Below are positions 3,110-23,251 of a DNA stretch of 64,000 nt, piece after piece. Position 1 is the stretch's first letter, and each line of letters begins with the position of its first letter. Under the pieces are notes generated by a model. That model was not told the DNA's origin. It did no database searches and worked only from the letters and a program-made list of their open reading frames with translations. Source of the stretch: a virus; IMG/VR virus record IMGVR_UViG_3300047564_003078, positions 28,766 through 92,765 of that record. The stretch is one strand, 5' to 3'. Both the position numbers and the translations under genes were made by a program.

Positions 3110-4318
3110 ATGTTCATAGAAGATATACTACAAACCCTAGTGGATAATCACGACATTAATCCGTCAGACAAGCCCATTCTTGTTAGCATTAGTCAACAGG
3201 TAAAAAAAGGCACTGCTCTAACTGATCGTCAACATGCTCTTGTTAAATCAAAGCTGCTTAATTACAAGCACTGTTTTGATGTTAACATTGATGAAATGTT
3301 AGATAACACTAGATTGCCGTTGCGTATAATCAACCGCGAACATTCGATTACTATTGTAAATCATCAAAACATGATGGGTGACGCTCCATATGAGAGTTAC
3401 AAACAAAAATGGAAATGGATTAAGATTAAATTTCCATTTAGTAAAAAAAATATTGTTGCAGTTGAACAACTTAATTCAAGTTCAAAAAGAAATAATTATT
3501 TTCATCAACGCGGTAGTCATGAACACTATTTTCGTTTAACTGAAAATAATGTTTATAATGTTGTACATTCTTTTATAGAAAAGAAGTTCGACATTGATAC
3601 TCAACTGATTGAATGGTACAACGAAGTTAAATCTTTAAAAGAGAACGAACGTTCTCTGTACCCTAGTGTAATCAATTACACTGTAAAAAATATAAGCGAT
3701 GACGGTTGTCAATTAATCGAAAAAGAAATTGGCAATATTGACAAGTCAAATATTTTAAAAATCATTGATCGTAAACGTAGATATGGCATTGTAACAGTTG
3801 ATTATGATAACGTGCCTGCTGGCTTAATTGGCGAAATTGCTTTTAGGACAGATAAAGAAATCAATATCAATCCAGAATCGTTTAATTTAAATTCAATTGC
3901 AGAAGCAACTATGCATCTTGATAGATTTCCGCTACTTGTTGTAATTGACAAAGAAGATGCTTTAAAACAAGTGTCGTCTGTTTATGATGCGTTTTCTTAT
4001 CTAGTTCCTTCTGAAAAACAAAGTGTTTTATTTAGAGTAGAAACCGAAAACAAATACAATGTTAACGATTTTATTCACGAGCGGTCTTTGAACAACTGGC
4101 TTGACACAAACACTGAAATCGTGTATATTTGTAAAAATAAACTTCCTAAATTGTTGTTAAAAACAGATTGGAAACCTAGTGCTGCATTAATTATTACCGG
4201 CACTAGAAGTCATACACACGTTAATTATTATATTAACGATTGTTGCGATCTTGTCATGGTACATGATAAAGATTCTAGTTTAATAGGAAAACTGAATAAA
4301 TCGTATGCCTACTTGTAA
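3110..4318 (+). CDS. hypothetical protein upstream of helicase
   Basis: 402-aa ORF preceded by TTGACA-17-TAAATT. Confidence 0.6.
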   Translation: MFIEDILQTLVDNHDINPSDKPILVSISQQVKKGTALTDRQHALVKSKLLNYKHCFDVNIDEMLDNTRLPLRIINREHSITIVNHQNMMGDAPYESYKQKWKWIKIKFPFSKKNIVAVEQLNSSSKRNNYFHQRGSHEHYFRLTENNVYNVVHSFIEKKFDIDTQLIEWYNEVKSLKENERSLYPSVINYTVKNISDDGCQLIEKEIGNIDKSNILKIIDRKRRYGIVTVDYDNVPAGLIGEIAFRTDKEININPESFNLNSIAEATMHLDRFPLLVVIDKEDALKQVSSVYDAFSYLVPSEKQSVLFRVETENKYNVNDFIHERSLNNWLDTNTEIVYICKNKLPKLLLKTDWKPSAALIITGTRSHTHVNYYINDCCDLVMVHDKDSSLIGKLNKSYAYL

Positions 4319-5768
4319 ACTAATAATTGAAGATGAAGTCAATATCAAGCTCGAAGGACTTGATATTGACGTTCGTCGTAAACTTGCAAATGCACTAAAG
4401 TTTGAAGTGCCGTATGCAAAACACATGCCTCAATTCAAGCTTGGACGTTGGGATGGCAAAGTTGCGTTCTTTGGAATCGGCGGCAGCGGCTATGTTAATC
4501 ATTTGGATATTATTGTTGACATTCTACAAAAGAACAATGTTCAAATTGTAGACATCGAAGATAACAGGCATCCAATACAATTAAATCTTCAACCAGTAAC
4601 CGAAACCTATTGGGCCGATCAAGGCGTGCGTTGGCCAAAAGGCCATCCAGCTGAAGGCGAACTTATTATGCTTCGCGACTATCAAGTTGAAGCAATCAAC
4701 AACTTTATTGCTAACCCGCAAAGTCTACAACAGATTGCTACCGGTGCAGGTAAAACTATTACCACAGCAACACTAAGTCACATTAGCGAACCATATGGTC
4801 GCAGTCTTGTCATTGTACCTAACAAGAGCTTGGTTGAACAAACTGAAGAAGATTATATTAACTGCGGACTTGACGTAGGTGTTTATTTCGGTGACAGAAA
4901 ACAACTAGGAAAAACACACACTATTTGCACTTGGCAAAGTTTAAACATTCTTGATAAGCGTCACAAAGACGGTGATGCAGTACTAAGCCTAGCAGAGTTC
5001 TTAGAAGGTGTAAGCACAGTTATTGTTGACGAAGTACACCAGGCCAAAGCAGAAGTACTAAAAAATCTACTTACACGCAACTTGCGTAACGCTCCAATTC
5101 GCTGGGGACTAACTGGTACAGTGCCCAAAGAGAAGTTTGAGTTTGAAAGTATTCACGCAAGCCTTGGCCCGGTTATTGGACAGATTACAGCAAAAGAATT
5201 ACAAGACAAAGGTGTGCTAGCAGACTGTCATGTTAACATTGTACAGCTAATTGATACTGTGGCACATAGAGGCTATCAAGAAGAATTAAAATATCTAGTT
5301 AGTAATAAAGAACGTATAGAATACATAGGCAAATTATTAAACACTATAAAAAACTCAGGCAATACTCTAATTCTTGTAGATAGAATTTCTGCAGGAGAGA
5401 TGCTACAGGAACTTATACCTAATAGCACCTTTATCAGTGGTGCTGTTAAAGTAAAAGACAGAAAAGAAACATACGACACAATTCGAGAAGGCACAAACGA
5501 AGTAATTATTGCTACGTATGGTGTTGCTGCGGTTGGACTTAACATTCCACGTATTTTTAATCTTGTGTTGCTTGAACCTGGTAAAAGTTTTGTAAGAGTG
5601 ATTCAAAGTATCGGTAGAGGCGTTAGAAAGGCAAAAGACAAAGACTTCGTACAAATATGGGATCTTACAAGCACATGTAAGTTTGCGAAGCGGCACCTTA
5701 CCGAACGAAAGAAGTTTTACAAGGAAGCTCAATACCCATTTACCATTGAAAAGGTAGATTGGAATTAA
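4305..5768 (+). CDS. uvsW: UvsW-like superfamily 2 DNA helicase
   Basis: LRDYQ, ATGAGKT, VDEVH, GLTGT and QSIGRGVR motifs. Confidence 0.85.
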   Translation: MPTCKLIIEDEVNIKLEGLDIDVRRKLANALKFEVPYAKHMPQFKLGRWDGKVAFFGIGGSGYVNHLDIIVDILQKNNVQIVDIEDNRHPIQLNLQPVTETYWADQGVRWPKGHPAEGELIMLRDYQVEAINNFIANPQSLQQIATGAGKTITTATLSHISEPYGRSLVIVPNKSLVEQTEEDYINCGLDVGVYFGDRKQLGKTHTICTWQSLNILDKRHKDGDAVLSLAEFLEGVSTVIVDEVHQAKAEVLKNLLTRNLRNAPIRWGLTGTVPKEKFEFESIHASLGPVIGQITAKELQDKGVLADCHVNIVQLIDTVAHRGYQEELKYLVSNKERIEYIGKLLNTIKNSGNTLILVDRISAGEMLQELIPNSTFISGAVKVKDRKETYDTIREGTNEVIIATYGVAAVGLNIPRIFNLVLLEPGKSFVRVIQSIGRGVRKAKDKDFVQIWDLTSTCKFAKRHLTERKKFYKEAQYPFTIEKVDWN

Positions 5769-6293: not shown

Positions 6294-6440
6294 ATGAAAA
6301 CATATGAAGCAATTGTAACTGTTGGTGGCATGAGCACAAAAACTCAAGTAAGTGCCAAAGATACTGTTAGTGCTAAAAAACTTATCGAAGCACAATACGG
6401 TAAAGATAATGTAAAATCTGGCGTATACGAGGTTAGATAA
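6294..6440 (+). CDS. small hypothetical protein (48 aa)
   Basis: AAGGAG RBS; MKTYEAIVTVGG...; not in supplied ORF track. Confidence 0.55.
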   Translation: MKTYEAIVTVGGMSTKTQVSAKDTVSAKKLIEAQYGKDNVKSGVYEVR

Positions 6441-6596
6441 ATGGAGTTGGTTGCATTACTAATTGTAATATTTGTAGGACTGTTAGCACTTGTTGTTTTA
6501 GGTAAATTGTTTTCTTGGGCATTAAGAAACAACAATTCGGCAATTTTGCTATTGGTAATTGCACCAATACTAGCATACATTGCATATAATATTTAA
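6441..6596 (+). CDS. small membrane protein (51 aa, 2 TM)
   Basis: MELVALLIVIFVGLL...; abuts previous stop. Confidence 0.5.
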   Translation: MELVALLIVIFVGLLALVVLGKLFSWALRNNNSAILLLVIAPILAYIAYNI

Positions 6597-6607
6597 GGAG
6601 AATAACA

Positions 6608-6973
6608 ATGGCGACACGAGCAGGAAAAATTTGGGGTACTACAGATTTTATATTTGGTAATGGTGCATTAGAGTTTCATAGGATTGCATTTAAGGCTGGT
6701 TACAAATGCAGCGAGCATCATCACAAATACAAGTGGAATGGATTTTACGTAGAACATGGAAAGATGATAATTCGTGTTTGGCAAGACGAAGATCAAAACG
6801 GATTAGTTGATGAAACAGTTCTTCACGGCGGACAATTTGCAATGGTTAAGCCAGGCAAGGTGCACCAGTTCGAAGGCCTAGAAGATGGCGTAGCATTTGA
6901 ACTATACTGGGCAGAATTTAATCACGATGATATTGTTCGCAGGACTATTGGTACAGCAGTGGACAAAAACTAA
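6608..6973 (+). CDS. cupin-domain protein (sugar isomerase-like)
   Basis: SEHHHKYKWNGF and VKPGKVHQF cupin motifs; AAGGAG RBS. Confidence 0.7.
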   Translation: MATRAGKIWGTTDFIFGNGALEFHRIAFKAGYKCSEHHHKYKWNGFYVEHGKMIIRVWQDEDQNGLVDETVLHGGQFAMVKPGKVHQFEGLEDGVAFELYWAEFNHDDIVRRTIGTAVDKN

Positions 6974-6981
6974 ATATCTGT

Positions 6982-7740
6982 ATGAAAAAGTACGCATTTA
7001 TTACAAGCATGAATCAACGATACTATGATCACATAGGTAGATTCATGCTTGAAAGTTTTTTAAAATATGCACCAAAACATTTTGTTTTGCATCTATATGC
7101 CGAAAGTATTATTAGCAAATTACCCAAAGCACTTAATTTAGTAATCTATGATTGGAATAAAGTGTGCAAAGAAGACTGGGAAAAGTTTGCAGTTAAAACC
7201 GATGATAACAGTGCAAGAAAATTTGGCAAAAAAGGATGGGCAAGTATTCATGCTTGGGAAAACATAGATGCAGATTACCTTATTTGGTTAGATGCAGATT
7301 TATTATTTCACAATCCGTTCGACGAAGATGTTATAAAACTTACTATTAAAAAAAATATGTTAATTGGATTGTTTAATCACGCCTACATTGCTCATACAAA
7401 AAATGAAGTACCTATAGGATACAGTGCCGAAACAGGATACGTCATTATAAACAAACGTCATAAAGATTTTTTAAAATTTGTAAAAAAATATAGAGAAATA
7501 TATGAGTTACCTTTTAAGCCAACCGACATAGTTAAATGGTGGGACAATCAAATTTGTATGATGGTTGCTAATATGTTTATAGAAAACGTATTTGATTTAA
7601 GTATTATTAGAACAACTGATAAAACACAAACTCCATTAAATCATAGCGAATTAAGCAAATATTTTAGTCATCAAAAAGGTAAAAGTAAAAAACATATGAA
7701 TGCTACACAAATGCAATCACTAATTGGATTAAAAGAATGA
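6982..7740 (+). CDS. GT-A fold glycosyltransferase
   Basis: IWLDAD, ETGY and HQKG motifs. Confidence 0.65.
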   Translation: MKKYAFITSMNQRYYDHIGRFMLESFLKYAPKHFVLHLYAESIISKLPKALNLVIYDWNKVCKEDWEKFAVKTDDNSARKFGKKGWASIHAWENIDADYLIWLDADLLFHNPFDEDVIKLTIKKNMLIGLFNHAYIAHTKNEVPIGYSAETGYVIINKRHKDFLKFVKKYREIYELPFKPTDIVKWWDNQICMMVANMFIENVFDLSIIRTTDKTQTPLNHSELSKYFSHQKGKSKKHMNATQMQSLIGLKE

Positions 7741-8483
7741 AAATAACAATCATTTCAACTTTTGGTCCAGCTCACTATAAAACTTACGGCAGATATTTTG
7801 TCGAAAGCCTAGAGAAATTTTTAGATAATCGTGTTGATGTTGTTCTATATACAGACACACCATTGACTTTATTTAAGCCAAATTTTAGCAACAGAATCTT
7901 AAACCAGTGTTCTCCTAATTTAGTAGAATTTAAAAAACGCAACAGCGACAAAGTTATACCTACTGGAACCAAAGGATGGATAAGAGATGCAGTAAGATTT
8001 AGTCATAAAAGTTACTGCATAATACATGCAAGCAGAACAATCGAAACTGATTTGCTTATTTGGTTAGACGCCGATACAGAAGTTATTGCTCCTATCACTC
8101 ACCAATATCTAAGCGAACAATTAGATTTAGATTATTTTGTGAGTTATTTAGGTAGACCCAATAGATATAGTGAAACTGGTTGGTTATGTTTTAATTTAAG
8201 GAATAAGTGGTCAAAAACGTTTTTTGATCGTTGGGAATGGTATTATAATACAAATGAAATTTATAACTTGCCTGCTCAACTAGATTGTCACGTATTTGAC
8301 GCTGTAAAGGAAGAAATGGAATCATTGGGTAAAATTAAAGCTCAAAATATAAGTCCACCAGATTTAAGCTCTCAGCATTTTGATAGAAAATTTATAGGAA
8401 AAATAACTCATTACAAGGGAGACAAAAAAGAAAACAGAGATCAAAATTTAAAAATTGCAAAACTGCGGGCTAGAAAAAAATGA
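7737..8483 (+). CDS. GT-A fold glycosyltransferase
   Basis: DAVRFSHK, IWLDADT and HYKG motifs; paralog of 1390. Confidence 0.65.
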   Translation: MKITIISTFGPAHYKTYGRYFVESLEKFLDNRVDVVLYTDTPLTLFKPNFSNRILNQCSPNLVEFKKRNSDKVIPTGTKGWIRDAVRFSHKSYCIIHASRTIETDLLIWLDADTEVIAPITHQYLSEQLDLDYFVSYLGRPNRYSETGWLCFNLRNKWSKTFFDRWEWYYNTNEIYNLPAQLDCHVFDAVKEEMESLGKIKAQNISPPDLSSQHFDRKFIGKITHYKGDKKENRDQNLKIAKLRARKK

Positions 8484-9346
8484 AAATAGTATTAACAGGC
8501 CACAAAGGTTTTATCGGTAGTCATTATTTAGATTATATAAAAGACCGAGTCGAAGTAGAATCAGTTTACGGGTTTGATAAAGACTCGGGCGAAGATCTGT
8601 GCAATACAAGAACTGCTTACGAAAGTCCGGATTGCGATGTACTGGTACATATGGCTGCAACCAATGGTACAAAACTGTTTTATGAAATTCCAACTGAAGT
8701 TGCAACCAACAATACACTGCCTACTTTCAATCTAGTACACAGATATCAAAATACCAATACTAAGATTGTGTTTACAAGTACTTGCGAGATTTTTAATACT
8801 ACTGTAGATAGAAATCTACACAGTGTCCCCACTGACGAATCTGTACCAATAATGTTTGAAGATATAACTAATCCTAGATGGAGTTACAGTCTTCCAAAAG
8901 CATTAGGTGAAAACTTAGTTGCCAATTGTGGTGCACCTTGGCTTATCATTAGATATTTTAATATCTATGGTCCAAGACAACGAGATCACTTTATCAGTGA
9001 ATTTGTTGAACGTGTAAAGAACGGCGAATATTATATTAAAGGCAACGATACTAGAAGTTTCTGCTACATTGATGATGCTGTTGTTATGACACATAATCTT
9101 GTCCAACATCATAATGGTTACATTGTAAACGTAGGTCATCAAGAAGAAATTGAAATAAGTACTGTAGCAAAAACAATTATGAATATTATGGGTGTAGATC
9201 CAGATCGGTTAGAAATCTTACCAGGGCTTGCAGGAAGTGCTAAACGCAGATGTCCTGATACTAGTTTAGTTCGTATGCTTACTGGATTTAAAGATTACAC
9301 GCCGTTGGAATTAGGACTTAAAAAAACAATAGAAAGTCTAATATGA
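8480..9346 (+). CDS. NAD-dependent nucleotide-sugar epimerase/dehydratase
   Basis: TGHKGFIG, YSLPK (YxxxK) and RYFNIYGP motifs. Confidence 0.85.
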   Translation: MKIVLTGHKGFIGSHYLDYIKDRVEVESVYGFDKDSGEDLCNTRTAYESPDCDVLVHMAATNGTKLFYEIPTEVATNNTLPTFNLVHRYQNTNTKIVFTSTCEIFNTTVDRNLHSVPTDESVPIMFEDITNPRWSYSLPKALGENLVANCGAPWLIIRYFNIYGPRQRDHFISEFVERVKNGEYYIKGNDTRSFCYIDDAVVMTHNLVQHHNGYIVNVGHQEEIEISTVAKTIMNIMGVDPDRLEILPGLAGSAKRRCPDTSLVRMLTGFKDYTPLELGLKKTIESLI

Positions 9347-10137
9347 AATTAGGTATAGTAGGGTTAGGTGCTGTAGGAAGTGCAAACAAACAAGGGTTTG
9401 AATATCTTGGTCACGAAGTAAGTGTACACGACATCAAATTGCCCACACTAATAACTGATGTACTAAACACCGAAATAGTATTTATTTGTGTTCCAACTCC
9501 TCAAGCAGCAGATGGTAGTTGCAATACAAGTATAATCGAAAGTGTAATACAAGAATTACAAGACCACACATACAAGGGTATTGTAGCTATACGTAGTACC
9601 GTAGTTCCTGGTTTTACACAACGAATGATAGATACATATAAAAATCTAACTATTTGTTTTGTTCCTGAATTTTTAAGAGAACGTTGTGCTGCTGACGATT
9701 TTATAAACAATCACAAACTACTTGCTATTGGAACACATGATATTTGGGTGTATAGAAAACTTGTAAAAGCTCATGGCAACTTACCAGAGAATACAGAACA
9801 TCTTACGCCCAGTGAAGCAGAGGTGCTAAAATATTACAATAACGTATATGCAGCTCTACGTGTTACCTTTGCAAATGTTATGTACGAAATCTGTGATAAA
9901 CTAGATTGCGATTACACAACTATTAAAAATGCTTATATTAAAACAGGAAAAGCAGTTGACATGTATCTTGATGTGAGTCCTGGGCTAAGAGGTTACGGCG
10001 GAATGTGTTTGCCAAAAGATACACAAGCTATTGCTGCATTGTTAAATCAACTGAACTTGGACTTTGATCTAATACAAAGTATAAACAATGATAATAACAA
10101 ACTTAAAAAAACAGTGTTTAACGGAATGAGAGAATGA
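9343..10137 (+). CDS. ugd: UDP-glucose/GDP-mannose dehydrogenase family (short, lacks C-terminal domain)
   Basis: GLGAVG, CVPTP, STVVPG, PEFLRE and catalytic GYGGMCLPKD. Confidence 0.8.
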   Translation: MKLGIVGLGAVGSANKQGFEYLGHEVSVHDIKLPTLITDVLNTEIVFICVPTPQAADGSCNTSIIESVIQELQDHTYKGIVAIRSTVVPGFTQRMIDTYKNLTICFVPEFLRERCAADDFINNHKLLAIGTHDIWVYRKLVKAHGNLPENTEHLTPSEAEVLKYYNNVYAALRVTFANVMYEICDKLDCDYTTIKNAYIKTGKAVDMYLDVSPGLRGYGGMCLPKDTQAIAALLNQLNLDFDLIQSINNDNNKLKKTVFNGMRE

Positions 10138-10733
10138 AAAAGAATCCTTTACTCGGAAAGTCCGAAGCACAAGCAGGACAAGATTTATTTGCATTAGAAA
10201 TATGCAAAAATAAAACCTATATTGAGATTGGTGGCAGTCATCCTAGACGCATTAATAACACATTCAATCTAGATTCTAATCACGGATGGAAAGGATTTAG
10301 TATTGAACTAAACGACAAATGGAACAATGCATGGGACACGTCGTCGAGAAACAATCCTTGTTATTTTGAAAACGCACTTACATTTGATTACCTTGCAGCA
10401 ATTCGCGAACAAGGAATGACCACCAAAGTTGGATATTTGAGTTGCGACATTGAACCGCCTGAAAATACCTATGCAGCTTTGCAGCGTGTAATCAATCAAG
10501 GTGTTGAGTTTGAATCTATTACATTTGAACACGACTGGTATAACTTTCCTGATACAACCTTTAATGAACAAGCAACTGAGTTTTTAAAGAAGCATGGATA
10601 CAAAGTTGCTGTTAGAGATGTGTTTTGTAAAAAATCTTGGCTACCATATGAAACATGGTATGTAAGAGAAGACATAGTATTCGAAGAACTAGACTTTCAA
10701 CAATGGCGTGCAAACAAGGTACAAACTCTATAA
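10134..10733 (+). CDS. FkbM-like methyltransferase
   Basis: QAGQD, YIEIG, GWKGFSIE, YLSCDIE and FEHD motifs. Confidence 0.65.
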   Translation: MKKNPLLGKSEAQAGQDLFALEICKNKTYIEIGGSHPRRINNTFNLDSNHGWKGFSIELNDKWNNAWDTSSRNNPCYFENALTFDYLAAIREQGMTTKVGYLSCDIEPPENTYAALQRVINQGVEFESITFEHDWYNFPDTTFNEQATEFLKKHGYKVAVRDVFCKKSWLPYETWYVREDIVFEELDFQQWRANKVQTL

Positions 10734-11017
10734 TGTTAATAGACCGTCCTGATTTAGTTGAACTGATTGGTGAGTCATTGATATATGAACAAGCCAACAG
10801 TGTGACATATGCACGTTTTAGAGATGAACCAAAAAAAAGTTTATATGCAGGACGTTGGATAATCGGCGGCAGTGCCGAGGAGATTGCTGTAGCACAAGGT
10901 TATTTGAGTTATGATAGTTGGAAAGAATTATTCAGTTTAGCAGACAAAAATCCTACTCTTAGAAAACAACTTGACAAAACTCTTGACATATATTATCTTA
11001 TAAAAAATGGAAAATAA
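10733..11017 (+). CDS. hypothetical protein
   Basis: TAATG-coupled to the upstream gene. Confidence 0.55.
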   Translation: MLIDRPDLVELIGESLIYEQANSVTYARFRDEPKKSLYAGRWIIGGSAEEIAVAQGYLSYDSWKELFSLADKNPTLRKQLDKTLDIYYLIKNGK

Positions 11018-11810
11018 AATGAAAATTATTGCAGGCCCATGCCAGCACGAAACTCTAGAACAGAGTTTAGAAATTGCTCAAGAATGCAAACGTGTATGTG
11101 AAAAATACGGCGTTGAATATTATTTCAAGGCCAGCTATGATAAAGCAAACCGTACAAGTATGTCAGGTAAGCGAGGACTAGGTCTCGAAAAAACCATGTA
11201 TGACTTCAGAAGCCTAAAAGAACAATTAGGAGTAAATACACTAACAGACGTACACGATATAAACCAAGTAACTTATATCAATACAGTTTGGGGAGATTCA
11301 GTTGACGTTTATCAGATCCCTGCTTTTCTTTGTCGCCAAACAGATCTTATTAGAGCTTGTGTGGCAACAGGCAAAACGGTTAATATTAAAAAAGGACAGT
11401 TTCTTGCACCGTGGGATGTCGCGGGTATTCTTTCGAAGATCGAAGGAGCCAAAGAAGTTTGGATAACAGAGAGAGGAACTAGCTTTGGATATAATGCCTT
11501 GGTTGTTGATTTCACCGGCCTTAACTATATGCTCGATAATTTTAGTGTACCTATTGTACTCGACGCCACGCACAGTGTACAAAAACCAGGCGGCCGAGGA
11601 ACTAGTAGCGATGGCAATCGTTCTTATGTTCCTGGCTTGGCTCGTGCAGCTAGTGCTCTAGGCGTAACCAACTTCTTCCTAGAAGTACACCCTGATCCGG
11701 ACAACGCACCCAGCGATGGTCCTAATATGTTACATTTAAAAGACTTTGAAGATGTTGTAAAACAAATTAAAGTAGTCGGTGATGCAGCAAGAGGATACAC
11801 TTGGCTATGA
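11007..11810 (+). CDS. kdsA: Kdo-8-phosphate synthase
   Basis: IAGPC, KASYDKANRTS, IPAFLCRQT, KKGQFLAP, DATHSVQ and SDGPN motifs. Confidence 0.93.
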   Translation: MENKMKIIAGPCQHETLEQSLEIAQECKRVCEKYGVEYYFKASYDKANRTSMSGKRGLGLEKTMYDFRSLKEQLGVNTLTDVHDINQVTYINTVWGDSVDVYQIPAFLCRQTDLIRACVATGKTVNIKKGQFLAPWDVAGILSKIEGAKEVWITERGTSFGYNALVVDFTGLNYMLDNFSVPIVLDATHSVQKPGGRGTSSDGNRSYVPGLARAASALGVTNFFLEVHPDPDNAPSDGPNMLHLKDFEDVVKQIKVVGDAARGYTWL

Positions 11811-12487
11811 CAACAGCAATACTAATCCCTGCAAGATATGCCAGTACTAGATTTCCTGGAAAGATGATGGCAAAGTTAAACGGTGTTCCCCTTGTAGAAC
11901 ATGTTTACAACAAGTGTGCTGCAACAGGACTTAGTACATATGTGCTAACTGATAACCAAGAAATTTACAACTACCTTGGTGCTAAAAAATGTTTGTGGAC
12001 TACAGAAGCAGAAAACGGTACAGAACGTTGTATGCAAGTTATTGACGAAGTGTTGCAATATGATCGCTACATTAATGTGCAAGGAGACATGCCAGACATT
12101 ACTCCTGAAATAATTCTTAAGGTAGAATCAGAATTACAAAAAAGTGATGTATCAACTGCATATACACAGATGGATTTTAACTTGCGTAATAATCCAAACA
12201 CTGTTAAAATGATACACAGTAGAGGAAGAGCACATTGGTTTCTACGTGCAAGCCTACAATATGGTGATCACCATCTTGGAGTATATGGCTACAACAGAGA
12301 AGCAAAATCAATGTATTCAACCAGCACCAAATTTATTGAAGAAGACATTGAAAAACTAGAACAACTAAGATGGATACAGAACGGTGTCAAAATCGGAGTT
12401 GTTGAAGTAGAGTTTGACGGTATAGAAATTAACACACCAGAAGATTTGGTAGAATGGCACAAACGTAATGGCGAACAAACATATTGA
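11807..12487 (+). CDS. kdsB: CMP-Kdo synthetase (3-deoxy-manno-octulosonate cytidylyltransferase)
   Basis: IPARYASTRFPGK, GTER, INVQGD, HLGVYGY and EKLEQLR motifs. Confidence 0.9.
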   Translation: MTTAILIPARYASTRFPGKMMAKLNGVPLVEHVYNKCAATGLSTYVLTDNQEIYNYLGAKKCLWTTEAENGTERCMQVIDEVLQYDRYINVQGDMPDITPEIILKVESELQKSDVSTAYTQMDFNLRNNPNTVKMIHSRGRAHWFLRASLQYGDHHLGVYGYNREAKSMYSTSTKFIEEDIEKLEQLRWIQNGVKIGVVEVEFDGIEINTPEDLVEWHKRNGEQTY

Positions 12488-12935
12488 TCTTTTTAAGGAA
12501 ATGATTCCTGCTATTGACTTAGGAATCAAAGAACTTTGGGATGCAGCAACCGACGAAGGCAAGAAAGAAATAAAACTTGACTTGTGGAATCTCAATCGTT
12601 ATATTAGTAGTGTTGGCGGCAGCTTTGAAAAACAAGCGTTGGCGTTGGTCAAAGTTAATGCATATTACAATAAGAACTGGGCAGTGTTAGGAGCAAATCA
12701 TCCTAAGCTACAATGGCAACTGTTGTGTGTTGCTGGTAAAACTGGTAAAAAAGAATTCCATCCGTGGATAGGGCTTAAAAAGAAAAAGGATGATAGTAGT
12801 AAAGCAGTAAAGTTATTATTACAAATTTATCCAAATATGAAGTTAGATGAGGTTGAAACGCTTGCTAGAATATCTACAAAAAAAGAGCTCCAAGAACTTG
12901 CCCGTGAACACGGATACGATAAAGTTGACCTCTAA
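12468..12935 (+). CDS. putative clamp-loader small subunit (T4 gp62-like)
   Basis: Size, NRYIS...N...LQWQLL...PWI pattern and replication context resemble gp62. Confidence 0.45.
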   Translation: MANKHIDLFKEMIPAIDLGIKELWDAATDEGKKEIKLDLWNLNRYISSVGGSFEKQALALVKVNAYYNKNWAVLGANHPKLQWQLLCVAGKTGKKEFHPWIGLKKKKDDSSKAVKLLLQIYPNMKLDEVETLARISTKKELQELAREHGYDKVDL

Positions 12936-13608
12936 AAGTTACACATGTGAATATTGCAACAAAAGTTACACTAAAGAAAGTACACTCGTTGCACACCTGT
13001 GTGAACCTAAAAGACGTTGGCTTCAGAAAGATGAAAAACGAGTACAGTTAGGGTTCTATGCCTTTCAAAGATTTTATCGACTAAGTGCAGGTGCTAAAAC
13101 AGACAAGACATATGATGAATTTGTAAAGTCAAGTTTCTATAATGCGTTTGTAAAGTTTGGTAGCTTTGTTAACAATGTAAGACCGCTGTATATGGAAAAA
13201 TATATCGATTATGTTGTAACCAGCGGAATTAAATTAGATCAATGGTGCAAAGACGAACTGTATGAAAAATATGCAATTGAGTTGATACGCAAAGAAGGTG
13301 TTGAAACAGCACTGGAGCGTAGTATAAATACAATGGTTGCTTGGGCTGCTGAACATAACAGCGTTTACAATCACTATTTCAATTACGTATCATTGAACAA
13401 ACTCACATGGGATATTAGAGATGGAAAGATATCTCCGTGGTTGGTTTTGAATTGCAAGAGCGGTAAAACAGCACTTGGCAAACTAAACAACGAACAGTTA
13501 AACATGTTGACCAATATCTTAGATCCACAACACTGGGCTGTGAGATTTAAAAGACAGCCAAAAGATGTAGAACTTGTAAAACAAATTTCACAGGAAGCCG
13601 GACTTTAA
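12925..13608 (+). CDS. N-terminal zinc-finger protein, function unknown
   Basis: CEYC-x12-H-x-C; start uncertain (TTG 12925, frame open from 12847). Confidence 0.55.
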   Translation: MTSKSYTCEYCNKSYTKESTLVAHLCEPKRRWLQKDEKRVQLGFYAFQRFYRLSAGAKTDKTYDEFVKSSFYNAFVKFGSFVNNVRPLYMEKYIDYVVTSGIKLDQWCKDELYEKYAIELIRKEGVETALERSINTMVAWAAEHNSVYNHYFNYVSLNKLTWDIRDGKISPWLVLNCKSGKTALGKLNNEQLNMLTNILDPQHWAVRFKRQPKDVELVKQISQEAGL

Positions 13609-13611
13609 TTA

Positions 13612-14181
13612 ATGCCTGATATCGACATAGACTTTGCAGACAGAGACGTTGTACTATCAAAGTTACAACATCGTGTCGCACGATTGGAAACAGGTAAAAA
13701 ACATAATACGGGCGTGTACGTTACTGAGGTGCCACACAATCCTATAGATAATATTGCAACCATTGATTATAATACTGCTGAGGACAGAGGGTATTTTAAA
13801 CTTGACTTTCTTAACGTACACATTTACAAAGATGTACGTGACGAAGCTCACATGCAAGAGTTGATGAATAAAGAACCATTATGGGAATTACTTGAACATT
13901 TTGAGTTTTGCACACAGGTGTTTCATCTAAGTGGCAACGAAAATTTAGTAAAAAAACTAGCACCTAAAAGTATAGAACAACTAGCTGCTACACTGGCTAT
14001 TATTAGACCTTCAAAAAGATATCTAGCTAACACAGTAGATTGGAATAGAATAAACAACGAAGTTTGGACTGTACCAGACGACGGCAGTTACTACTTTAAA
14101 AAAGCCCATGCGTTTAGCTATGCTATGGCTGTGGTAGTACACATGAATTTGTTATGTGAAAAAGTCAACGAATCTTTTTAA
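13612..14181 (+). CDS. miniature DNA polymerase III alpha (DnaE)-like protein
   Basis: PDIDIDF, HNTGVYV, GYFKLDFL, VFHL, LAATLAIIRP and YYFKKAHAFSYA match DnaE motifs in order within 189 aa. Confidence 0.75.
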   Translation: MPDIDIDFADRDVVLSKLQHRVARLETGKKHNTGVYVTEVPHNPIDNIATIDYNTAEDRGYFKLDFLNVHIYKDVRDEAHMQELMNKEPLWELLEHFEFCTQVFHLSGNENLVKKLAPKSIEQLAATLAIIRPSKRYLANTVDWNRINNEVWTVPDDGSYYFKKAHAFSYAMAVVVHMNLLCEKVNESF

Positions 14182-14551
14182 TTAACTGAACGCTTTTTCT
14201 TTTTATTCGTTTAAGAGTTAAGTTTGTTACATTAACGCATGGCCCTATAACAACTTTAACATCTTTGCTGTTCATAGTCATCATACAATATTTTAGATTA
14301 TCAATTTCTCTTCTGAGGAATATATTAATAGGAATCATTCGATTTGATTCCCACCACCATATTTCTCCTAAATCCAACAACAGTTTTTTATCCTCGGGTG
14401 TTCTTAAACCTGTATAAACAAACATGGTAGTAACATACTGATCTTGATTTGAGATAATGCCTACATATTCGTTGCCGCCATAAGCAACAACACTAACATA
14501 AGGAAATTGATTTTCTATTTCTTTTAATAACATCTTTTCCAATAAATACAC
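14165..14551 (-). CDS. hypothetical protein
   Basis: 128-aa ORF (WWWESNR); start may be ATG 14533. Confidence 0.6.
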   Translation of the reverse strand: MYLLEKMLLKEIENQFPYVSVVAYGGNEYVGIISNQDQYVTTMFVYTGLRTPEDKKLLLDLGEIWWWESNRMIPINIFLRREIDNLKYCMMTMNSKDVKVVIGPCVNVTNLTLKRIKRKSVQLIKKIR

Positions 14552-14580
14552 TATAATAATTTTTAAGGATCCAGTATAGT

Positions 14581-15354
14581 ATGCAACTAACCCCTAGATA
14601 TTTAGTCGATAATTTTACTTATGTTATTTCTAGTGAAACTGGATTTGTAGTGGAGTATAGACCAGTGTATAGCAGACAATTAAAAGTATATAGAGGTATA
14701 GACAATACCTTACAGTTTAGATTACTAAATGCTGATCAAAAACCTGTATTTGTTGAAGGTACTCCAATTTTTGTTGCCTTTGACGAAAATGGCATTTTGG
14801 TTATTGAACGTGACTGTACAGTTACCGACGATAGTAGTACAGCATTGAAAGGTATGTTTGAGGTAACCATAACCGAAAACGATTTGTTGAATATAAGACA
14901 ACAGTACCTTACCTATAACATTTATATAAATGGCAATTCTAAAACTTTAACCTACGCCAATAGAAATTTTGACAGTGCTGGAATAATATATGTAAACGGC
15001 AATAGCTTCCCAGGAGTTAAACCTAGCAAAGTTGTAAACAATTGGCAATTTTTAAATGACCTTTATTACGGAACATTAGATGAAGATGGTGAACGTATCA
15101 GTGCTGACCCTGGAATAAATGGTAACGAAGCATTGCATACCATTGCAGTTTATTCAAACGGTTACACAGGCAATCTAATTGTACAAGCTACGCTAGACAA
15201 CAGCACCGATACACTAGATTGGGCAACTGTAACTACTGTTACGTTTACCGGCAACGAAACAGAACCAACTCCTGTAAACTTTAACGGTGTTTACAATTAT
15301 CTAAGATTTGTAGCTGTTGACGATACTATTGAGAAGATACTCGTTAGAAATTAA
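14581..15354 (+). CDS. putative virion structural protein (BppU-N-like Ig fold)
   Basis: KVYRGIDNTLQFRLLN; beta-rich; TAAATA late-type promoter at 14543. Confidence 0.45.
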   Translation: MQLTPRYLVDNFTYVISSETGFVVEYRPVYSRQLKVYRGIDNTLQFRLLNADQKPVFVEGTPIFVAFDENGILVIERDCTVTDDSSTALKGMFEVTITENDLLNIRQQYLTYNIYINGNSKTLTYANRNFDSAGIIYVNGNSFPGVKPSKVVNNWQFLNDLYYGTLDEDGERISADPGINGNEALHTIAVYSNGYTGNLIVQATLDNSTDTLDWATVTTVTFTGNETEPTPVNFNGVYNYLRFVAVDDTIEKILVRN

Positions 15355-15388
15355 TTGACATACAGACAGTAAAATGCTACTATGAACT

Positions 15389-16387
15389 ATGAGCATTGTA
15401 TCTGACGTCTTGACCACTTACTTGCCTGCAAAGCGTAAAACCACACCTAGTGGTTGGACCAGCTTCAATGCACCTTGTTGTACGTACAATGGTGAAAATG
15501 CAGACACTAGAGGACGTGGCGGACTTATCACAGAAGGCGATGTAATCAGCTATCATTGCTTCAACTGTGGCTTCAAAGCCAGCTGGCAACCCGGACGCAA
15601 TCTAAGTCACAAGTTTAAAAAATTGTTGGAATGGTTAAACACACCCGACAGTGAAATTACAAAACTTGCACTGGATGTAATGCGTATCAACGAAGGCGTC
15701 GAAGTTCAAATACACAAAGTTGAACTGCCTGAATTTACAACCGTGCCTTTGCCAGATGACGCTGTGCGTATACGAGACATACCAGACTACAATGAAAACT
15801 GTTTGAGTTTTAAAAACTTTTTACAGGTAATTGATTATATGGCTGAACGTAATCTAAATCTCGATGATACAGATTATTATTGGAGCCCTAGCCTTGCATA
15901 TAGAGAACGTTTGATTGTTCCGTTTTACTATGAAGGTAGGATTGTAGGATGGACTGCTCGCAGTATAAATCAAAACAAAAAACCCAAGTACCTTACAGAA
16001 ACACAACCTGGATTTGTGTATAACTTGGATGAGCAACGTCCACAAAAAGCATTTACTCTAGTATGCGAAGGACCCATCGATGCTATCCATATCGAAGGGT
16101 GTGCGTTAACTGGTAGCGAAATAAACGACGCCCAGGCCTTGTTACTAAACAGACTTGGCAAGGATATATACATTGTTCCGGATAGAGATCAAGCTGGCAG
16201 TAAACTAATTGAACAAGCTATTGACAGAGGTTGGGGTGTTAGTATGCCAGAATGGGGTCCGGGCATAAAAGATATAAGCGATAGCGTAGCCAAGCACGGT
16301 AGACTATATACACTGTATAGTATCGTAGCTGCGGCTGAAACATCGCCGCTTAAAATTAGATTGAGAGCAAAGAAATGGTTTATTTAA
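15389..16387 (+). CDS. DNA primase (gp61/DnaG-like)
   Basis: Zn ribbon PCC..YHCFNCG; TOPRIM motifs EGPIDA and PDRD; TTGACA-17-TACTAT promoter. Confidence 0.85.
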   Translation: MSIVSDVLTTYLPAKRKTTPSGWTSFNAPCCTYNGENADTRGRGGLITEGDVISYHCFNCGFKASWQPGRNLSHKFKKLLEWLNTPDSEITKLALDVMRINEGVEVQIHKVELPEFTTVPLPDDAVRIRDIPDYNENCLSFKNFLQVIDYMAERNLNLDDTDYYWSPSLAYRERLIVPFYYEGRIVGWTARSINQNKKPKYLTETQPGFVYNLDEQRPQKAFTLVCEGPIDAIHIEGCALTGSEINDAQALLLNRLGKDIYIVPDRDQAGSKLIEQAIDRGWGVSMPEWGPGIKDISDSVAKHGRLYTLYSIVAAAETSPLKIRLRAKKWFI

Positions 16388-16497
16388 AAAAGATTTGGTC
16401 TATACTTACATGGCCCTATAATAAAATCAAAGAAGAGATTGCATGGCGTAAACGTTTGAAAGAACTACGCAAGAGAGATCCGTTTATTTACAAATGA
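16375..16497 (+). CDS. 40-aa small protein ending RKRDPFIYK
   Basis: Overlaps both neighbours (ATGA coupling to 16494); not in ORF track. Confidence 0.5.
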   Translation: MVYLKKIWSILTWPYNKIKEEIAWRKRLKELRKRDPFIYK

Positions 16498-17060
16498 AAT
16501 ATAGAATATTACTAGTAGCATTGGAAGCAGAACTTCCTTATAAACTTGCACCTAAAAATTATAAAGTAATTTACACAGGTGTAGGAAAAGTAAACGCAGC
16601 ATTTGAAGCCACTAGAGCTATTGCAGAAGCACACAGTTTGGGGTTCCATCCTGAAGTTTATAACTACGGCACTGTTGGATCATGTAAACCCGATCTTACA
16701 GGCATGCACCGTATTACAAGATTTGTGCAGCGTGACATGAATGCAGAACCGCAAGCACCAAGAGGTGTAACTCCATTTGAAGCAGGGCTACCCTATTTGG
16801 ACTTTTCACTGGATATGACTCATGGTCTTACGCTAGGCACAGGCGATCAGTTTGTACACGAATTAGAACCGTGGCTGGTAAACAACAGCATTGATGTAGT
16901 TGACATGGAAGCATATGCTATTGCTCATGTGTGTAAACGCATGAATGCACAATTCACTTGCTACAAGTATATCACCGATTATGTAGGTACACCGCATCAA
17001 GCAGACACTTGGCAACAGAATGTAGCAAATGGTGTAGGGGAAATTTTAAAAGTATTATGA
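16494..17060 (+). CDS. MTA/SAH nucleosidase (PNP_UDP_1 family)
   Basis: GVGKVNAA, GTGDQF, VDMEAYA and KYITD motifs. Confidence 0.8.
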   Translation: MKYRILLVALEAELPYKLAPKNYKVIYTGVGKVNAAFEATRAIAEAHSLGFHPEVYNYGTVGSCKPDLTGMHRITRFVQRDMNAEPQAPRGVTPFEAGLPYLDFSLDMTHGLTLGTGDQFVHELEPWLVNNSIDVVDMEAYAIAHVCKRMNAQFTCYKYITDYVGTPHQADTWQQNVANGVGEILKVL

Positions 17061-18577
17061 TTACTTGGGGAATAAGTGCCAACAGCCACGATGCTGCTCT
17101 AGCAGTGTACAAACACGAACATGTGGGTATTGATCTCAAACTGATGTTTGCAAGTCACAGCGAACGTTACAGTGGAATTAAAAACGACCCCCATCTAAAT
17201 ACTGCATTAATAGATGCAGCAAAACAACACGGAGAACCAGATGAAGTTGTTTGGTATGAACAACCTTTACTCAAAACTATTAGACAGTTTAGAGCAGGCC
17301 AAGGAATTCGGTTACGCGAAAACAATGTTAAACGTTATCTTAAATCTCATGGGATACACGCTCCTATTAGGTATGTTGATCATCATCTTGCCCATGCTGC
17401 TGCCGGTTTTTATACTAGTGGGTTTACAGAAGCTACTGTCGCATGTATCGACAGTATTGGAGAGTTCGAAACCCTTACCATCTGGGAAGGCAAAGACCGA
17501 GAACTCAAACGTATATATTCACAATCCTATCCCCATTCGCTGGGACTCTGGTATAGTGCGTTCACGCAAAGACTAGGGTTAAAACCGCAAGAGGACGAAT
17601 ATATTCTTATGGGTATGGCAGCCTATGGCGACCCTCTAAAGTACATGAACGAAATACTTGAAGAGTTTTTTTACCCTATAGAAAAAGAAAATCTCAAAGA
17701 CATATTCTTTCCTAAACCTAGAATCAAACTGCGTCACAATTTACACAGGGGATGTCTATGGTGGCGGCCAGAACTCAATAGCCCCCAAGATATAATGGAC
17801 ATAGCAGCGGCTGTTCAAGCAATATATGCGTACTTATTGAAATACATCAGCAACTGGGCTAGATGGAAATCATCCTCGGGTAACCTTGTTCTAATGGGAG
17901 GGTGTGCTTTAAATTGTGCTGCAAACAGCGGCATATACAAAGATTGGAATCAAGTTTGGATAATGCCCAATCCGGGCGATGCCGGGTCAGCTATCGGAGC
18001 ACCACTAGCCCATTACAAACAACACGTTGAATGGCCGGGTCCCTATCTAGGTCACAACATAGAAGGAGATTATCCTGTTGAAGATATTATCCGAGAACTG
18101 CTTACCACAGGTATCTGCGGTGTTGCTAGTGGCCCAGCTGAGTTTGGCCCTCGTGCTCTTGGTCATCGTAGTTTATTGGCTGACCCAAGAGGTGTGGACA
18201 TCAAGGATCGGGTCAACCGCATCAAGCAACGTCAGCAGTTTAGACCATTTGCCCCCGCAGTACTTGAAGAACATGCTGCAACCTATTTCGATGGCCCAGC
18301 AGGACCCTACATGCAATACACTGCTGTTTGCACAGACCCTGGACTACCTGCAATCACGCACGGGGACGGCACCAGTAGGGTACAGACAGTTTCTCGAGAT
18401 CAAAGCCCGGGCTTTAGACGTTTGCTAGAACGCTGGTACGAGGAAACTGGATGCCCTATACTGTTAAATACCAGTCTTAACATCAAGGGTCAACCAATTG
18501 TTAACACTGTAGAGGATGCTATAGAGTTTGAAAAACATTACGGTGTAAAAGTATGCTTGGCTGCTGCGAAAAAGTAA
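17057..18577 (+). CDS. NodU/CmcH-family carbamoyltransferase
   Basis: HDAA, HHLAHAA, EYILMGMAAYG, GGCALNC, EFGPRALG, FRPFAP and LNTSLN motifs; ATG at 17057. Confidence 0.9.
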   Translation: MITWGISANSHDAALAVYKHEHVGIDLKLMFASHSERYSGIKNDPHLNTALIDAAKQHGEPDEVVWYEQPLLKTIRQFRAGQGIRLRENNVKRYLKSHGIHAPIRYVDHHLAHAAAGFYTSGFTEATVACIDSIGEFETLTIWEGKDRELKRIYSQSYPHSLGLWYSAFTQRLGLKPQEDEYILMGMAAYGDPLKYMNEILEEFFYPIEKENLKDIFFPKPRIKLRHNLHRGCLWWRPELNSPQDIMDIAAAVQAIYAYLLKYISNWARWKSSSGNLVLMGGCALNCAANSGIYKDWNQVWIMPNPGDAGSAIGAPLAHYKQHVEWPGPYLGHNIEGDYPVEDIIRELLTTGICGVASGPAEFGPRALGHRSLLADPRGVDIKDRVNRIKQRQQFRPFAPAVLEEHAATYFDGPAGPYMQYTAVCTDPGLPAITHGDGTSRVQTVSRDQSPGFRRLLERWYEETGCPILLNTSLNIKGQPIVNTVEDAIEFEKHYGVKVCLAAAKK

Positions 18578-18694
18578 ACATAGTACAACACATTGAAAAG
18601 ATTGAGATTGACACACATACATACTGTATTACAATTATATATTGTGAAAATTGTGGCAGTGTGAAAGCAACAACAAACGTGAGACAAATAAAAA

Positions 18695-20113
18695 ATGGCA
18701 ACAAGACAGAATACTGATTACGGATACGATATACAAAAACTATACTTAGAAATAATGCTCACAGATGCAGAAACATTTGTGCGTTGCCAAAGTGTGTTTG
18801 ATTCAACTACGTTTGATCGTAGACTGCAAGACACTGCTAAATTTATCAACGAGTATGTTATTGCACACAACATTGTGCCCACGTTTGATATGGTTAATGC
18901 TGCAACCAAATCAGATCTTAAGAATCCAGGAACACTTGAAGAAGCACACTATGATTGGCTACTACAAGAATTTGAAACATTCTCGAGACACAAAGCACTG
19001 GAAGCTGCTATTCTCAAAAGTGCAGACTTGCTGGAAAAGGGCGAGTATGGTCCTGTTGAAGAACTTGTAAAGCGGGCTGTACAAATTGGTTTGCAAAAAG
19101 ACTTGGGTACAGACTACTTTGCTGACCCGCGACGCAGACTAGAAGCAATCAAAAGCAACAACGGGCAAGTTAGCACAGGCTGGCCCACACTGGACAAGAA
19201 ACTGTTTGGCGGATTCAACAGAGGCGAACTCAATATCTTTGCAGGCGGTTCGGGCTCGGGCAAGAGTTTGTTCCTTGCTAACATGGGTGTAAATTGGGCA
19301 TTGGCTGGAATGAACGTGCTGTATCTCACTTTCGAACTTAGCGAAAACCTAGTCAGTATGCGTATTGACAGTATGGTTACAGACATTCCCAGCAGAGACA
19401 TCTTTAAGAGCATTGACGATGTTGAAATGAAAGTAAAGATGATTGGAAAGAAGTCGGGCAGTATACAAGTCAAGTACATGCCCACAGGCAAGAATGCCAA
19501 TGACTTGCGTAGCTATATCAAAGAATATGAAATCAAAACAAAGAAAAAACTTGATGTTGTATTGGTAGACTATCTAGATCTTATGCATCCAATCGGACAA
19601 AAGATTTCAGCAGAAAATCTATTCGTCAAAGACAAGTATGTCAGTGAAGAACTGCGTAACCTAGCAATGGAACTGAACACAGTGTTTGTTACAGCAAGTC
19701 AGTTGAACAGAGCCAGCGTTGAAGAAATTGAATTTGATCACAGTCATATTTCCGGTGGTATTTCAAAGATCAATACTGCGGATAACTTGATCGGTATCTT
19801 CACAAGTCGTGCAATGAGAGAACGTGGACGTTATCAAATTCAGCTGATGAAAACACGCTCAAGCTCAGGTGTTAACAGCAAGATTGATTTGGAGTTTGAT
19901 GTAGACAGTCTGCGTATTAGAGATCTTGGCGAGGAAGAAGAATTCAACGATTCTGACAAACGCAAGAGCACAGTGTTTGATCAACTCAAACGCAACAACA
20001 ACGCTCCTACTGCACCTGACAATCCCAGCGAAGGCGACACTGTTGGAAAAATACGTGCAACCACAGACAGCACTGCATTAAGAAACTTCTTAAACAAACT
20101 AGACGTTGAATGA
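18695..20113 (+). CDS. DnaB-like replicative helicase (gp41-like)
   Basis: GGSGSGKS, TFEL, VDYLD, TASQLNR and MKTR motifs. Confidence 0.9.
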   Translation: MATRQNTDYGYDIQKLYLEIMLTDAETFVRCQSVFDSTTFDRRLQDTAKFINEYVIAHNIVPTFDMVNAATKSDLKNPGTLEEAHYDWLLQEFETFSRHKALEAAILKSADLLEKGEYGPVEELVKRAVQIGLQKDLGTDYFADPRRRLEAIKSNNGQVSTGWPTLDKKLFGGFNRGELNIFAGGSGSGKSLFLANMGVNWALAGMNVLYLTFELSENLVSMRIDSMVTDIPSRDIFKSIDDVEMKVKMIGKKSGSIQVKYMPTGKNANDLRSYIKEYEIKTKKKLDVVLVDYLDLMHPIGQKISAENLFVKDKYVSEELRNLAMELNTVFVTASQLNRASVEEIEFDHSHISGGISKINTADNLIGIFTSRAMRERGRYQIQLMKTRSSSGVNSKIDLEFDVDSLRIRDLGEEEEFNDSDKRKSTVFDQLKRNNNAPTAPDNPSEGDTVGKIRATTDSTALRNFLNKLDVE

Positions 20114-20129
20114 GATATTATCTAGGAAG

Positions 20130-20891
20130 TCAGCCTACAAATAGACGCTGCCAAAAGGTCTGTGTTTGAACAGTACGCACCACGGGCAATCTACGCACAC
20201 CTAATGCTCGGCTAGGATCATAGAGATCAATTCTAACCGAGTTCTTTTGATTGCCGCCCAATATTTGCCAATACACCTTGCCATCTACAGTTACAGTGTC
20301 CACATAGAATCCTACATGACCTTGCCAGCTTTGTCTACCACGTGGAAACACCACTATGTCACCGGGCTGTGGATCCTCATGTTTATGATTCACAGGCTCG
20401 CCCCATTCTAAGAAACTTCTAGCCATCAACGGATATTCACTTACACTCTCTGATCCTGCATGATCGCCGCTGTGCAACACCGAGTTAACAAAAGCTGCAC
20501 ACCACTCCGTCTGTCTTGGATCCACACCCAAAAAGTCTCGCAGTTCTGATCTGTGCTGTTGTTCGTTCTTGTCCACCCACTCGTAGGCCACATCAAGATA
20601 AAAAGTTTCTCTTATCTTAGGTGCAAACAAAGCTTGAAACAAAGGATCGTTGCGTCGCGGCGGTTCGGGCTCAGGCGGCACCGACACATTTGATATCACA
20701 GCATCAGGTCTACTGCGTGGTCGTGGACTGGTTTCCACCACTGTGACCACGGGCACCGACTCCGGTGTTGCTGGTTCTGTAACAGCATATACCACACCGC
20801 TGGCACGTTCTTCTATGTCTTGTGAAACAACTTGCAATTGACTGCAAGCCCCTAATATGCTGACAGCAGCTACGATTGTTGGTATTCTCAT
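20130..20891 (-). CDS. lipoprotein with TIGR02594/NlpC-P60-like peptidase domain
   Basis: ILGAC lipobox, Pro-rich linker, WCAAFV, GHVGFY and LGGNQ motifs. Confidence 0.75.
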   Translation of the reverse strand: MRIPTIVAAVSILGACSQLQVVSQDIEERASGVVYAVTEPATPESVPVVTVVETSPRPRSRPDAVISNVSVPPEPEPPRRNDPLFQALFAPKIRETFYLDVAYEWVDKNEQQHRSELRDFLGVDPRQTEWCAAFVNSVLHSGDHAGSESVSEYPLMARSFLEWGEPVNHKHEDPQPGDIVVFPRGRQSWQGHVGFYVDTVTVDGKVYWQILGGNQKNSVRIDLYDPSRALGVRRLPVVRTVQTQTFWQRLFVG

Positions 20892-20960
20892 ACTTGGCCC
20901 TCCTAGTACTTATACACACCAACAGAGATACTGCGTGTGGTAAGCAGGATCTTGCTGACT

Positions 20961-21662
20961 CTACTGTAGAAAATGTTCTATGCTGTGGGCTAAACTGCTG
21001 AAGTTGGCTGCTAACCAAGCATGTCCTGCAGGTCCAGGATGAGCACCATCTCTGGCACCTCGGTCAAAGAACACACCGTTCAACCGTGGATCGTCTATGC
21101 TGATCATCTGAACCTCAAACCCGTAGCGTTGGCTGAGACCGTATAGTGCATAGCGTGTGGTACGTACCATAGCACTCAACACACCTGGATGCATGGCAGT
21201 GCGAGTCCAATAACGCCGTATCACCGAAGGATCCGTCAACGGAACATTGGGACGACTGTGAACACTGAATGTGTCCGCTCGTGCATCCTCATAATGACCC
21301 AAATAACGTCTGCCTGGTGTAGGCTCCAAATAGTACAGCACACTGATACGGTGGTTGCACTTTCGCAACAGCGTTTCCAAATAGTGTATGCAGGCTTCTT
21401 GTCCAGTACCACCTTCGCTGATGTTCATGGTTATGCCCATAACACTGCTCCAGGTTTGCTCCTCGCGAACTCCTACACCATAGGTACAACTGCAACCTAA
21501 ACTGGCAGTGGTTGGCTCCGACACTGGCCAATCCAGTCCTCTAAATCCATAACGATTGTGACGATATTCTATGTCCACACCACGCCAGGCAGGATTGCCA
21601 AATCCTCTATCTCCTGCACATAACGGACCTACTGTATAAGGCTTTACATGTGTTAATTGCAT
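20961..21662 (-). CDS. SGNH/GDSL hydrolase-like protein
   Basis: LGCSCTYG and DGAHPG; ATG 21662 follows a minus-strand TAAATA. Confidence 0.55.
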   Translation of the reverse strand: MQLTHVKPYTVGPLCAGDRGFGNPAWRGVDIEYRHNRYGFRGLDWPVSEPTTASLGCSCTYGVGVREEQTWSSVMGITMNISEGGTGQEACIHYLETLLRKCNHRISVLYYLEPTPGRRYLGHYEDARADTFSVHSRPNVPLTDPSVIRRYWTRTAMHPGVLSAMVRTTRYALYGLSQRYGFEVQMISIDDPRLNGVFFDRGARDGAHPGPAGHAWLAANFSSLAHSIEHFLQ

Positions 21663-23250: not shown

Positions 23251-23251
23251 G

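Follow-up and report, generated by a model that had tools for sequence, protein, structure and literature searches.

A probable C-terminal half of a split minimal DNA polymerase III alpha subunit in a giant-phage genome fragment

Our analysis identified an open reading frame (ORF) of 189 codons, from an uncultured giant phage, that likely encodes the C-terminal half of a split, minimal DNA polymerase III (Pol III) alpha subunit of T4-like ('group 2.2') giant phages. The narrower statement, that the ORF is the C-terminal unit (C-unit) of such a split enzyme, we make with high confidence. The stretch of DNA that was analysed (the window) comprises 64,000 nucleotides and is the 3′ 64 kb of a 92,765-bp IMG/VR virus record with a CheckV completeness of 26%, the record being a fragment of a roughly 350-kb phage. 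The initial annotation had presented the ORF as a novel mini-polymerase, but the family was described earlier: a split minimal Pol III alpha was reported from sequence in group 2.2 jumbo phages, where it accompanies a family B polymerase and where a role in one-strand synthesis or in repair was suggested (Iyer et al., 2021, Viruses 13:63; PMC7824862). PF07733, a domain of the N-terminal half, was reported as the single marker that distinguishes the largest cluster of marine jumbo phages (Weinheimer and Aylward, 2022; PMC9123017), and GenBank records already name both halves of the split enzyme. The ORF is therefore a real case, but its family had been described and annotated before.

The phage belongs to a freshwater and lagoon population. 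DNA of this population, followed with window positions 12400-16400, was found in freshwater, lake, lagoon and wetland metagenomes of 14 studies, and one contig of another study was ~99% identical to this region over 2953 nt. Small contigs of one RNA library span positions 13598-13757 and other parts of the region; DNA carry-over is possible there, and transcription is not implied.

Sequence, conservation and predicted fold of the ORF

The ORF is a stop-free frame that opens with MPDIDIDF. Motifs of DnaE-type polymerases follow one another along it: PDIDIDF (residues 2-8), HNTGVYV (31-37), GYFKLDFL (60-67), VFHL, LAIIRP (128-133) and YYFKKAHAFSYA (160-171). The translation and these positions bear out the initial description of an intact 189-aa ORF with the DnaE motifs in order. 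The unit and its putative active-site elements are as follows.

13612..14181, plus strand: probable C-terminal (Mg2+- and template-binding) unit of a split minimal Pol III alpha, 189 aa, assigned from phrog_11778, the PDB profile search, AlphaFold2 (AF2), VIA and dN/dS
13618..13632, plus strand: DIDID, with D3, D5 and D7 (two catalytic Asp), invariant in 77 diverse homologues
13798..13806, plus strand: K63-L-D65, corresponding to E. coli K553-F-D555 (third catalytic Asp), aligned to GLVKFDFL of 5fku_A
14005..14010, plus strand: R132-P133 of LAIIRP, corresponding to E. coli ALFRPG (R639-P640) of the fingers; invariant, from the profile alignment
14095..14109, plus strand: F162-K-K-A-H166, corresponding to E. 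coli FNKSH 756-760 of the fingers, with K163 and H166 in at least 90% of sequences

We take D3, D5 and D7 to be the equivalents of D399, D401 and D403 of E. coli DnaE.

Sequence comparisons led to the same family. The ORF was matched over its full length by phrog_11778, annotated 'DNA polymerase' (E 1e-57), and over residues 45-136 by phrog_405, a 1190-aa DnaE (E 1.4e-8), while Pfam yielded only a sub-threshold fingers match, below the gathering scores. A family profile (A1) built from 77 diverse homologues with 30-54% identity to the query ORF matched nine PDB sequences, all of them Pol III alpha (best E 1.1e-5), and placed K63/D65 on E. coli K553/D555, IRP on ALFRPG and FKKAH on FNKSH 756-760. 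A single-sequence phmmer search aligned MPDIDIDF with residues 413-420 of M. tuberculosis DnaE1.

The AF2 model of the ORF product (pLDDT 97.1, pTM 0.89) has a predicted palm fold, and its 17 best Foldseek matches were all C-family polymerases. With VIA-align the model superposed on residues 461-841 of Taq Pol III alpha (3e0d_A) with Z 9.9 and an rmsd of 3.7 Å over 186 of its 189 residues, and on residues 400-781 of E. coli Pol III alpha with Z 9.0 over 183 residues; the best non-polymerase fold reached Z 3.3. More generally, bacterial DnaE (PDB 2hnh, 3e0d, 5lew) has a palm with three aspartates and a lysine, the ALFRP motif and the FNKSH motif in the same order, and is superposable on the model (Z 9-9.9). 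The profile and structure matches together support a DnaE-derived piece of palm plus fingers, as initially proposed. By its model, the ORF product retains about half of the E. coli DnaE span on which it superposes (residues ~400-781), the other half being deleted: since ~189 residues cover a DnaE span of ~381, the earlier term 'internally condensed' is right, the thumb and much of the fingers being deleted within that span. The missing parts had also been named correctly. The ORF starts at about E. coli position 399 and has nothing past ~781; compared with bacterial DnaE of more than 1100 aa, it is without the PHP, thumb, beta-clamp-binding, helix-hairpin-helix (HhH) and OB parts.

Across the 77 sequences D3, D5, D7, K63, D65, R132 and P133, and thus all three catalytic aspartates, are invariant, and H31, G34, K163 and H166 are each kept in 90% or more. 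The C-unit gene keeps a length of 185-197 aa across 78 related loci, and the median pairwise dN/dS is 0.11 (158 pairs; range 0.03-0.19). All three population variants within the ORF (13677, 13983 and 14076) are synonymous third-position changes. The family is large, with at least 7971 clusters at 90% identity in a near-length search and 419 representatives at 50% identity. The ORF is a live gene under purifying selection, with no sign of pseudogene decay.

The distant N-terminal unit and a fused form

The ORF has its start right at the DxD strand; the GRGS nucleotide-binding segment, which in the palm comes before this strand, is absent from it. The signature of Pol-beta-like nucleotidyltransferases is hG[GS] ... 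DxD, and with such a start only half of this signature is present. A search of the ORF with PF07733 gave no match. This start is usual in the family: among the length-selected representatives listed, 75 of 78 start within about 25 residues of the PDxDxD motif. Bacterial DnaE carries the GRGS segment on the same chain, whereas in the split phage enzyme it lies on another polypeptide, the N-terminal unit (N-unit). In related giant phages the N-unit is a separate gene of ~170-185 aa, located 43-226 kb from the C-unit, and its end, ...GVGRGSS...LDWREFLR, is the exact point where our ORF begins. In phage Phosso the N-unit lies at 97210-97743 (PF07733 E 7.9e-13) and the C-unit at 321328; in PAC2 they lie at 172846-173355 (PF07733 E 4e-10) and at 129268, respectively. 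Both N-units pass the curated PF07733 cut-off, covering only profile positions ~20-97, and both were named by their depositors as DnaE-like or DNA-pol3-alpha domain proteins. Two aquatic relatives (G002 and G003), whose C-unit is ~70% identical to ours, encode an N-unit ORF of 185 aa that ends ...GVGRGSSVASYVLYLIGVHKINSIQYGLDWREFLR (PF07733 E 1.7e-9, profile positions 20-94) and also a family B polymerase (PolB) of ~895 aa; in cellular DnaE a segment like this N-unit end directly precedes MPDxDxDF. In the closest long aquatic relatives the N-unit is at least 122 kb from the C-unit.

The two halves also occur joined. A 375-aa metagenomic protein (P0256) carries N-unit, a linker of ~9 residues and C-unit in a single chain, whereas our ORF corresponds to the C-unit only. 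PF07733 crosses the N/C junction of this protein (E 4.8e-16), the N-unit profile matches its residues 22-180 (hhalign 99.4%), and our ORF aligns to its residues 190-371 with 33% identity and the same motifs. The fused protein is a singleton from one 2415-nt ENA contig, and no relatives of it were found in IMG/VR. A word-index search for longer fused forms returned none at E 1e-5, a weak result, since it was the representative search that found the fused protein. One further observation concerns the start of the N-unit: residues 1-87 of a representative (P0272, L095:1174-1728) are without a counterpart in the PF07733 and NCBIfam DnaE models, which match from ~88, and these first ~87 residues are highly conserved and retained in the fused form.

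Among cultured phages the C-unit was found in 96 records and the N-unit in 93, with matching genus counts; the records listed are of 284-490 kb, with one exception of 94 kb. This co-occurrence is no more specific than that of other core genes of the clade, and the zinc-finger gene that precedes the C-unit is patterned alike. Stop-codon reassignment was considered as a cause of the split and rejected: code 11 gives a normal ORF structure, the split is conserved and the halves lie far apart.

In the 92,765-bp record we found neither an N-unit (searched with PF07733 and with the PAC2 N-unit) nor a PolB (PF00136), and an unfiltered six-frame HMM search of the record gave a best E of 0.98, compared with 1.9e-75 for the C-unit control. 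Such a result is expected, as the record is 26% complete and the two units lie 43-226 kb apart in relatives; the absence of the N-unit from the record does not imply that the phage lacks it. Judging by the relatives, the source phage presumably encodes both N-unit and PolB. The search for other DnaE pieces and for PolB that the initial annotation had proposed thus came out empty in the record and positive in relatives. Its reading of the ORF as a 'minimal nucleotidyl-transfer enzyme' stands as to the DnaE-derived core and falls as to completeness, the GRGS segment being a separate, distant gene in relatives. Its suggestion of a subunit 'completed in trans' is likely right with the N-unit as the partner, while for the zinc-finger protein in this part we found no evidence.

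The replication module and the zinc-finger gene

The neighbours of the C-unit that bear on its interpretation are listed here in window coordinates.

4305..5768, plus strand: UvsW-like helicase at the upstream end of the replication/recombination backbone (phrog_16 E 8e-78; ResIII/Helicase_C; UvsW_N E 0.004)
12468..12935, plus strand: conserved gene two upstream of the C-unit, 155 aa (orf155; phrog_11758 'unknown function', E 5.9e-10)
12925..13608, plus strand: zinc-finger gene, 227 aa from TTG 12925, with a C2HC/C2H2-like finger and an all-helical body (phrog_11058 E 2.6e-62)
14165..14551, minus strand: convergent small gene, 128 aa (phrog_11637, unknown function, E 9.5e-30), in 76 of 80 related loci
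15389..16387, plus strand: DnaG-type (Toprim) primase (phrog_47 E 6.6e-39; Toprim_2 E 4e-5)
18695..20113, plus strand: DnaB-like replicative helicase (PF03796 E 5.9e-22; phrog_19 E 6.7e-71)

The primase and helicase that had been noted nearby are thus in place, and the order of zinc-finger gene, C-unit, convergent small gene, primase and DnaB is that of PA5oct-like phages, Phosso and Turkey3. Downstream of the convergent gene the window continues with a 257-aa gene, the Toprim primase, a nucleosidase-like gene, a carbamoyltransferase and the DnaB-like helicase, and the order of the replication/recombination backbone is common to the window and phages PAC2 and Turkey3. The likeness to the group 2.2 split enzyme extends to the ORF itself, which belongs to the same family (E 1e-57), is of the same size, has its split point just before PDxDxD and is 50% identical to a PA5oct-group protein. 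A genome of this group would be that of a T4-like giant phage with PolB, DnaB, a DnaG-type primase and UvsW; primase, DnaB-like and UvsW-like genes lie in the window, and PolB is absent from the fragment and present in close relatives. Compared with the described group 2.2 phages, the window differs in the auxiliary sugar and Kdo genes inserted in its backbone, and in that N-unit and PolB are not seen here, the record being a fragment.

The auxiliary metabolic genes occupy positions 6608-12487 and 16494-18577. Among them are KdsA-like (PF00793 E 9e-55) and KdsB-like (PF02348 E 1e-25) genes, and cysteine-dioxygenase-like, glycosyltransferase-like, nucleotide-sugar epimerase and UDP-glucose dehydrogenase-like genes are also present; together they amount to a phage Kdo/sugar pathway. 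Positions 20000-36000 form a compositional island with a GC content of 0.48-0.52, compared with 0.35-0.38 in positions 1-20000, and with many small genes and a normal ORF structure under code 11. The island contains three tRNAs on the minus strand (27502-27757: Arg-TCT, Met-CAT and Leu-TAA) and an AAA+ clamp-loader-like gene at 25786-26784 (phrog_1250 E 6e-79, phrog_168 E 9e-6).

The zinc-finger gene was correctly recognized in the initial annotation. Its product carries an N-terminal C-x2-C-x12-H-x-C finger, C2H2-like and below the Pfam cut-off (zf-C2H2 E 6e-4), and the AF2 model (pLDDT 90.3) has a confident all-helical body. Searches with the protein and its model gave few leads: Foldseek returned nothing at E 1e-3 or better, a wide VIA search, in which AAA+ lid-like helical bundles were frequent among the matches, gave at best Z 4.3 over ~60-70 residues and so was too weak for a fold assignment, NCBIfam gave no match, and the protein-atlas search returned only unnamed viral clusters. 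The gene lies upstream of the C-unit in 80 of 80 related loci and is found in 93 cultured-phage records. In the window only 3 nt lie between the two genes, which share a reading frame, with TAA TTA before the ATG (13606-13614). In relatives the gap between them is a variable hotspot of 0-2.5 kb of unrelated genes (L036:3876-6000, L039:3478-5620 and others), among them genes for a peptide deformylase, a 2OG-Fe(II) oxygenase, a HAD phosphatase and an APS-kinase-like P-loop kinase; some related loci have a second variable gap after the C-unit. Because unrelated genes are inserted between them in relatives, the zinc-finger gene and the C-unit do not form a coupled pair, and it is by local accident, within a conserved backbone order, that they adjoin in the window. 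The same inserts rule out, as a general mechanism, read-through of the TAA that would fuse the zinc-finger gene to the C-unit.

As to orf155, its earlier description as 'clamp-loader-like' was not substantiated: what speaks for it is a language-model lead to Phage_clamp_A (PF16790), shared by 13% of one cluster, and one depositor's name, 'sliding-clamp-loader small subunit', for the homologue in phage Turkey3. Pfam gave no significant match, and none to PF16790, on 32 members of the orf155 family. In the PDB the orf155 profile reached only chains of PriX, an archaeal primase subunit (4wyh, 5of3_C), with a non-significant E of 0.14-0.2, and the language-model lead, weak in itself, conflicts with this one.

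Proposed mechanism, alternatives and significance

The C-unit has the three metal-binding aspartates D5, D7 and D65, with K63 adjoining, and a reduced set of fingers motifs, IRP and FKKxH. We propose that N-unit and C-unit assemble into one Pol-beta-like nucleotidyltransferase (palm) domain. The 189-aa protein alone is probably inactive. The pair may act as a small DNA polymerase beside the family B replicase, and would be poorly processive, as the thumb, clamp-binding and OB parts are missing. We lean towards the view that the pair is an active DNA polymerase, though not strongly, and are less sure of any specific role; the constant position of the gene beside primase and helicase, together with the domain loss, suggests that the pair extends primers over short distances or fills gaps at the fork.

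Other readings of the same data were weighed against the split polymerase. The invariant catalytic aspartates would be compatible with a self-sufficient minimal nucleotidyltransferase, and the constant upstream position of the zinc-finger gene (80 of 80 loci), its same phyletic spread and its distance of 3 nt in frame would fit a protein completed in trans by this neighbour. We regard both forms of this reading as improbable, since the GRGS loop and the first palm elements sit in the N-unit and in the N-half of the fused protein, and since the zinc-finger profile has no similarity to the fused enzyme, its model is without a polymerase-like fold, and 0-2.5 kb of unrelated genes intervene in relatives. 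A complex prediction with the window C-unit, a relative's N-unit and the zinc-finger protein scored 0.14 against a mark of 0.32, which speaks neither for nor against binding. Hardly more probable is a multi-subunit 'modular' mini-replicase of orf155, zinc-finger protein, C-unit and distant N-unit that would extend lagging-strand primers beside PolB; in it, a zinc-finger DNA binder and a PriX- or gp62-like helical protein would replace the thumb, DNA-binding and clamp-contact domains of Pol III.

The split enzyme may also be real without being a templated DNA polymerase, serving instead in untemplated tailing, in the synthesis of a nucleotide signal or as a non-catalytic replisome scaffold. The loss of thumb, clamp-binding, HhH and OB parts and the presence of a family B replicase in these phages would agree with this, as would the literature searched, in which we found neither a biochemical test of the split mini-Pol III nor a reported activity. 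The IRP and FKKxH motifs of the fingers make template and incoming-nucleotide contacts; they are shared with DnaE, kept and nearly invariant, and this, together with the placement of the gene in a primase-helicase module, argues for a templated polymerase, while the invariance of the catalytic triad speaks against a role that is structural only. We therefore consider this reading unlikely, if somewhat less so than the preceding ones. Finally, since the ORF covers only part of DnaE and begins in the middle of the palm domain, it could be the remnant of a phage or host dnaE that was once complete and is now decaying. Selection and conservation already refute this reading, and we give it practically no weight: dN/dS is ~0.11, the length stays at 185-197 aa over 78 loci, homologues of this size number in the thousands, the active-site residues are invariant, the predicted fold is compact and very confident, and the six-frame HMM search detected no flanking dnaE remnants.

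Among the known relatives of the bacterial replicase core, the split mini-Pol III is the smallest. It has thousands of metagenome variants, to which the window contributes one more family member, its partner gene not being in the record. If the two halves form an active enzyme, they would define the minimal catalytic unit of C-family polymerases, and the phage replisome would be one that combines a family B with a family C polymerase.
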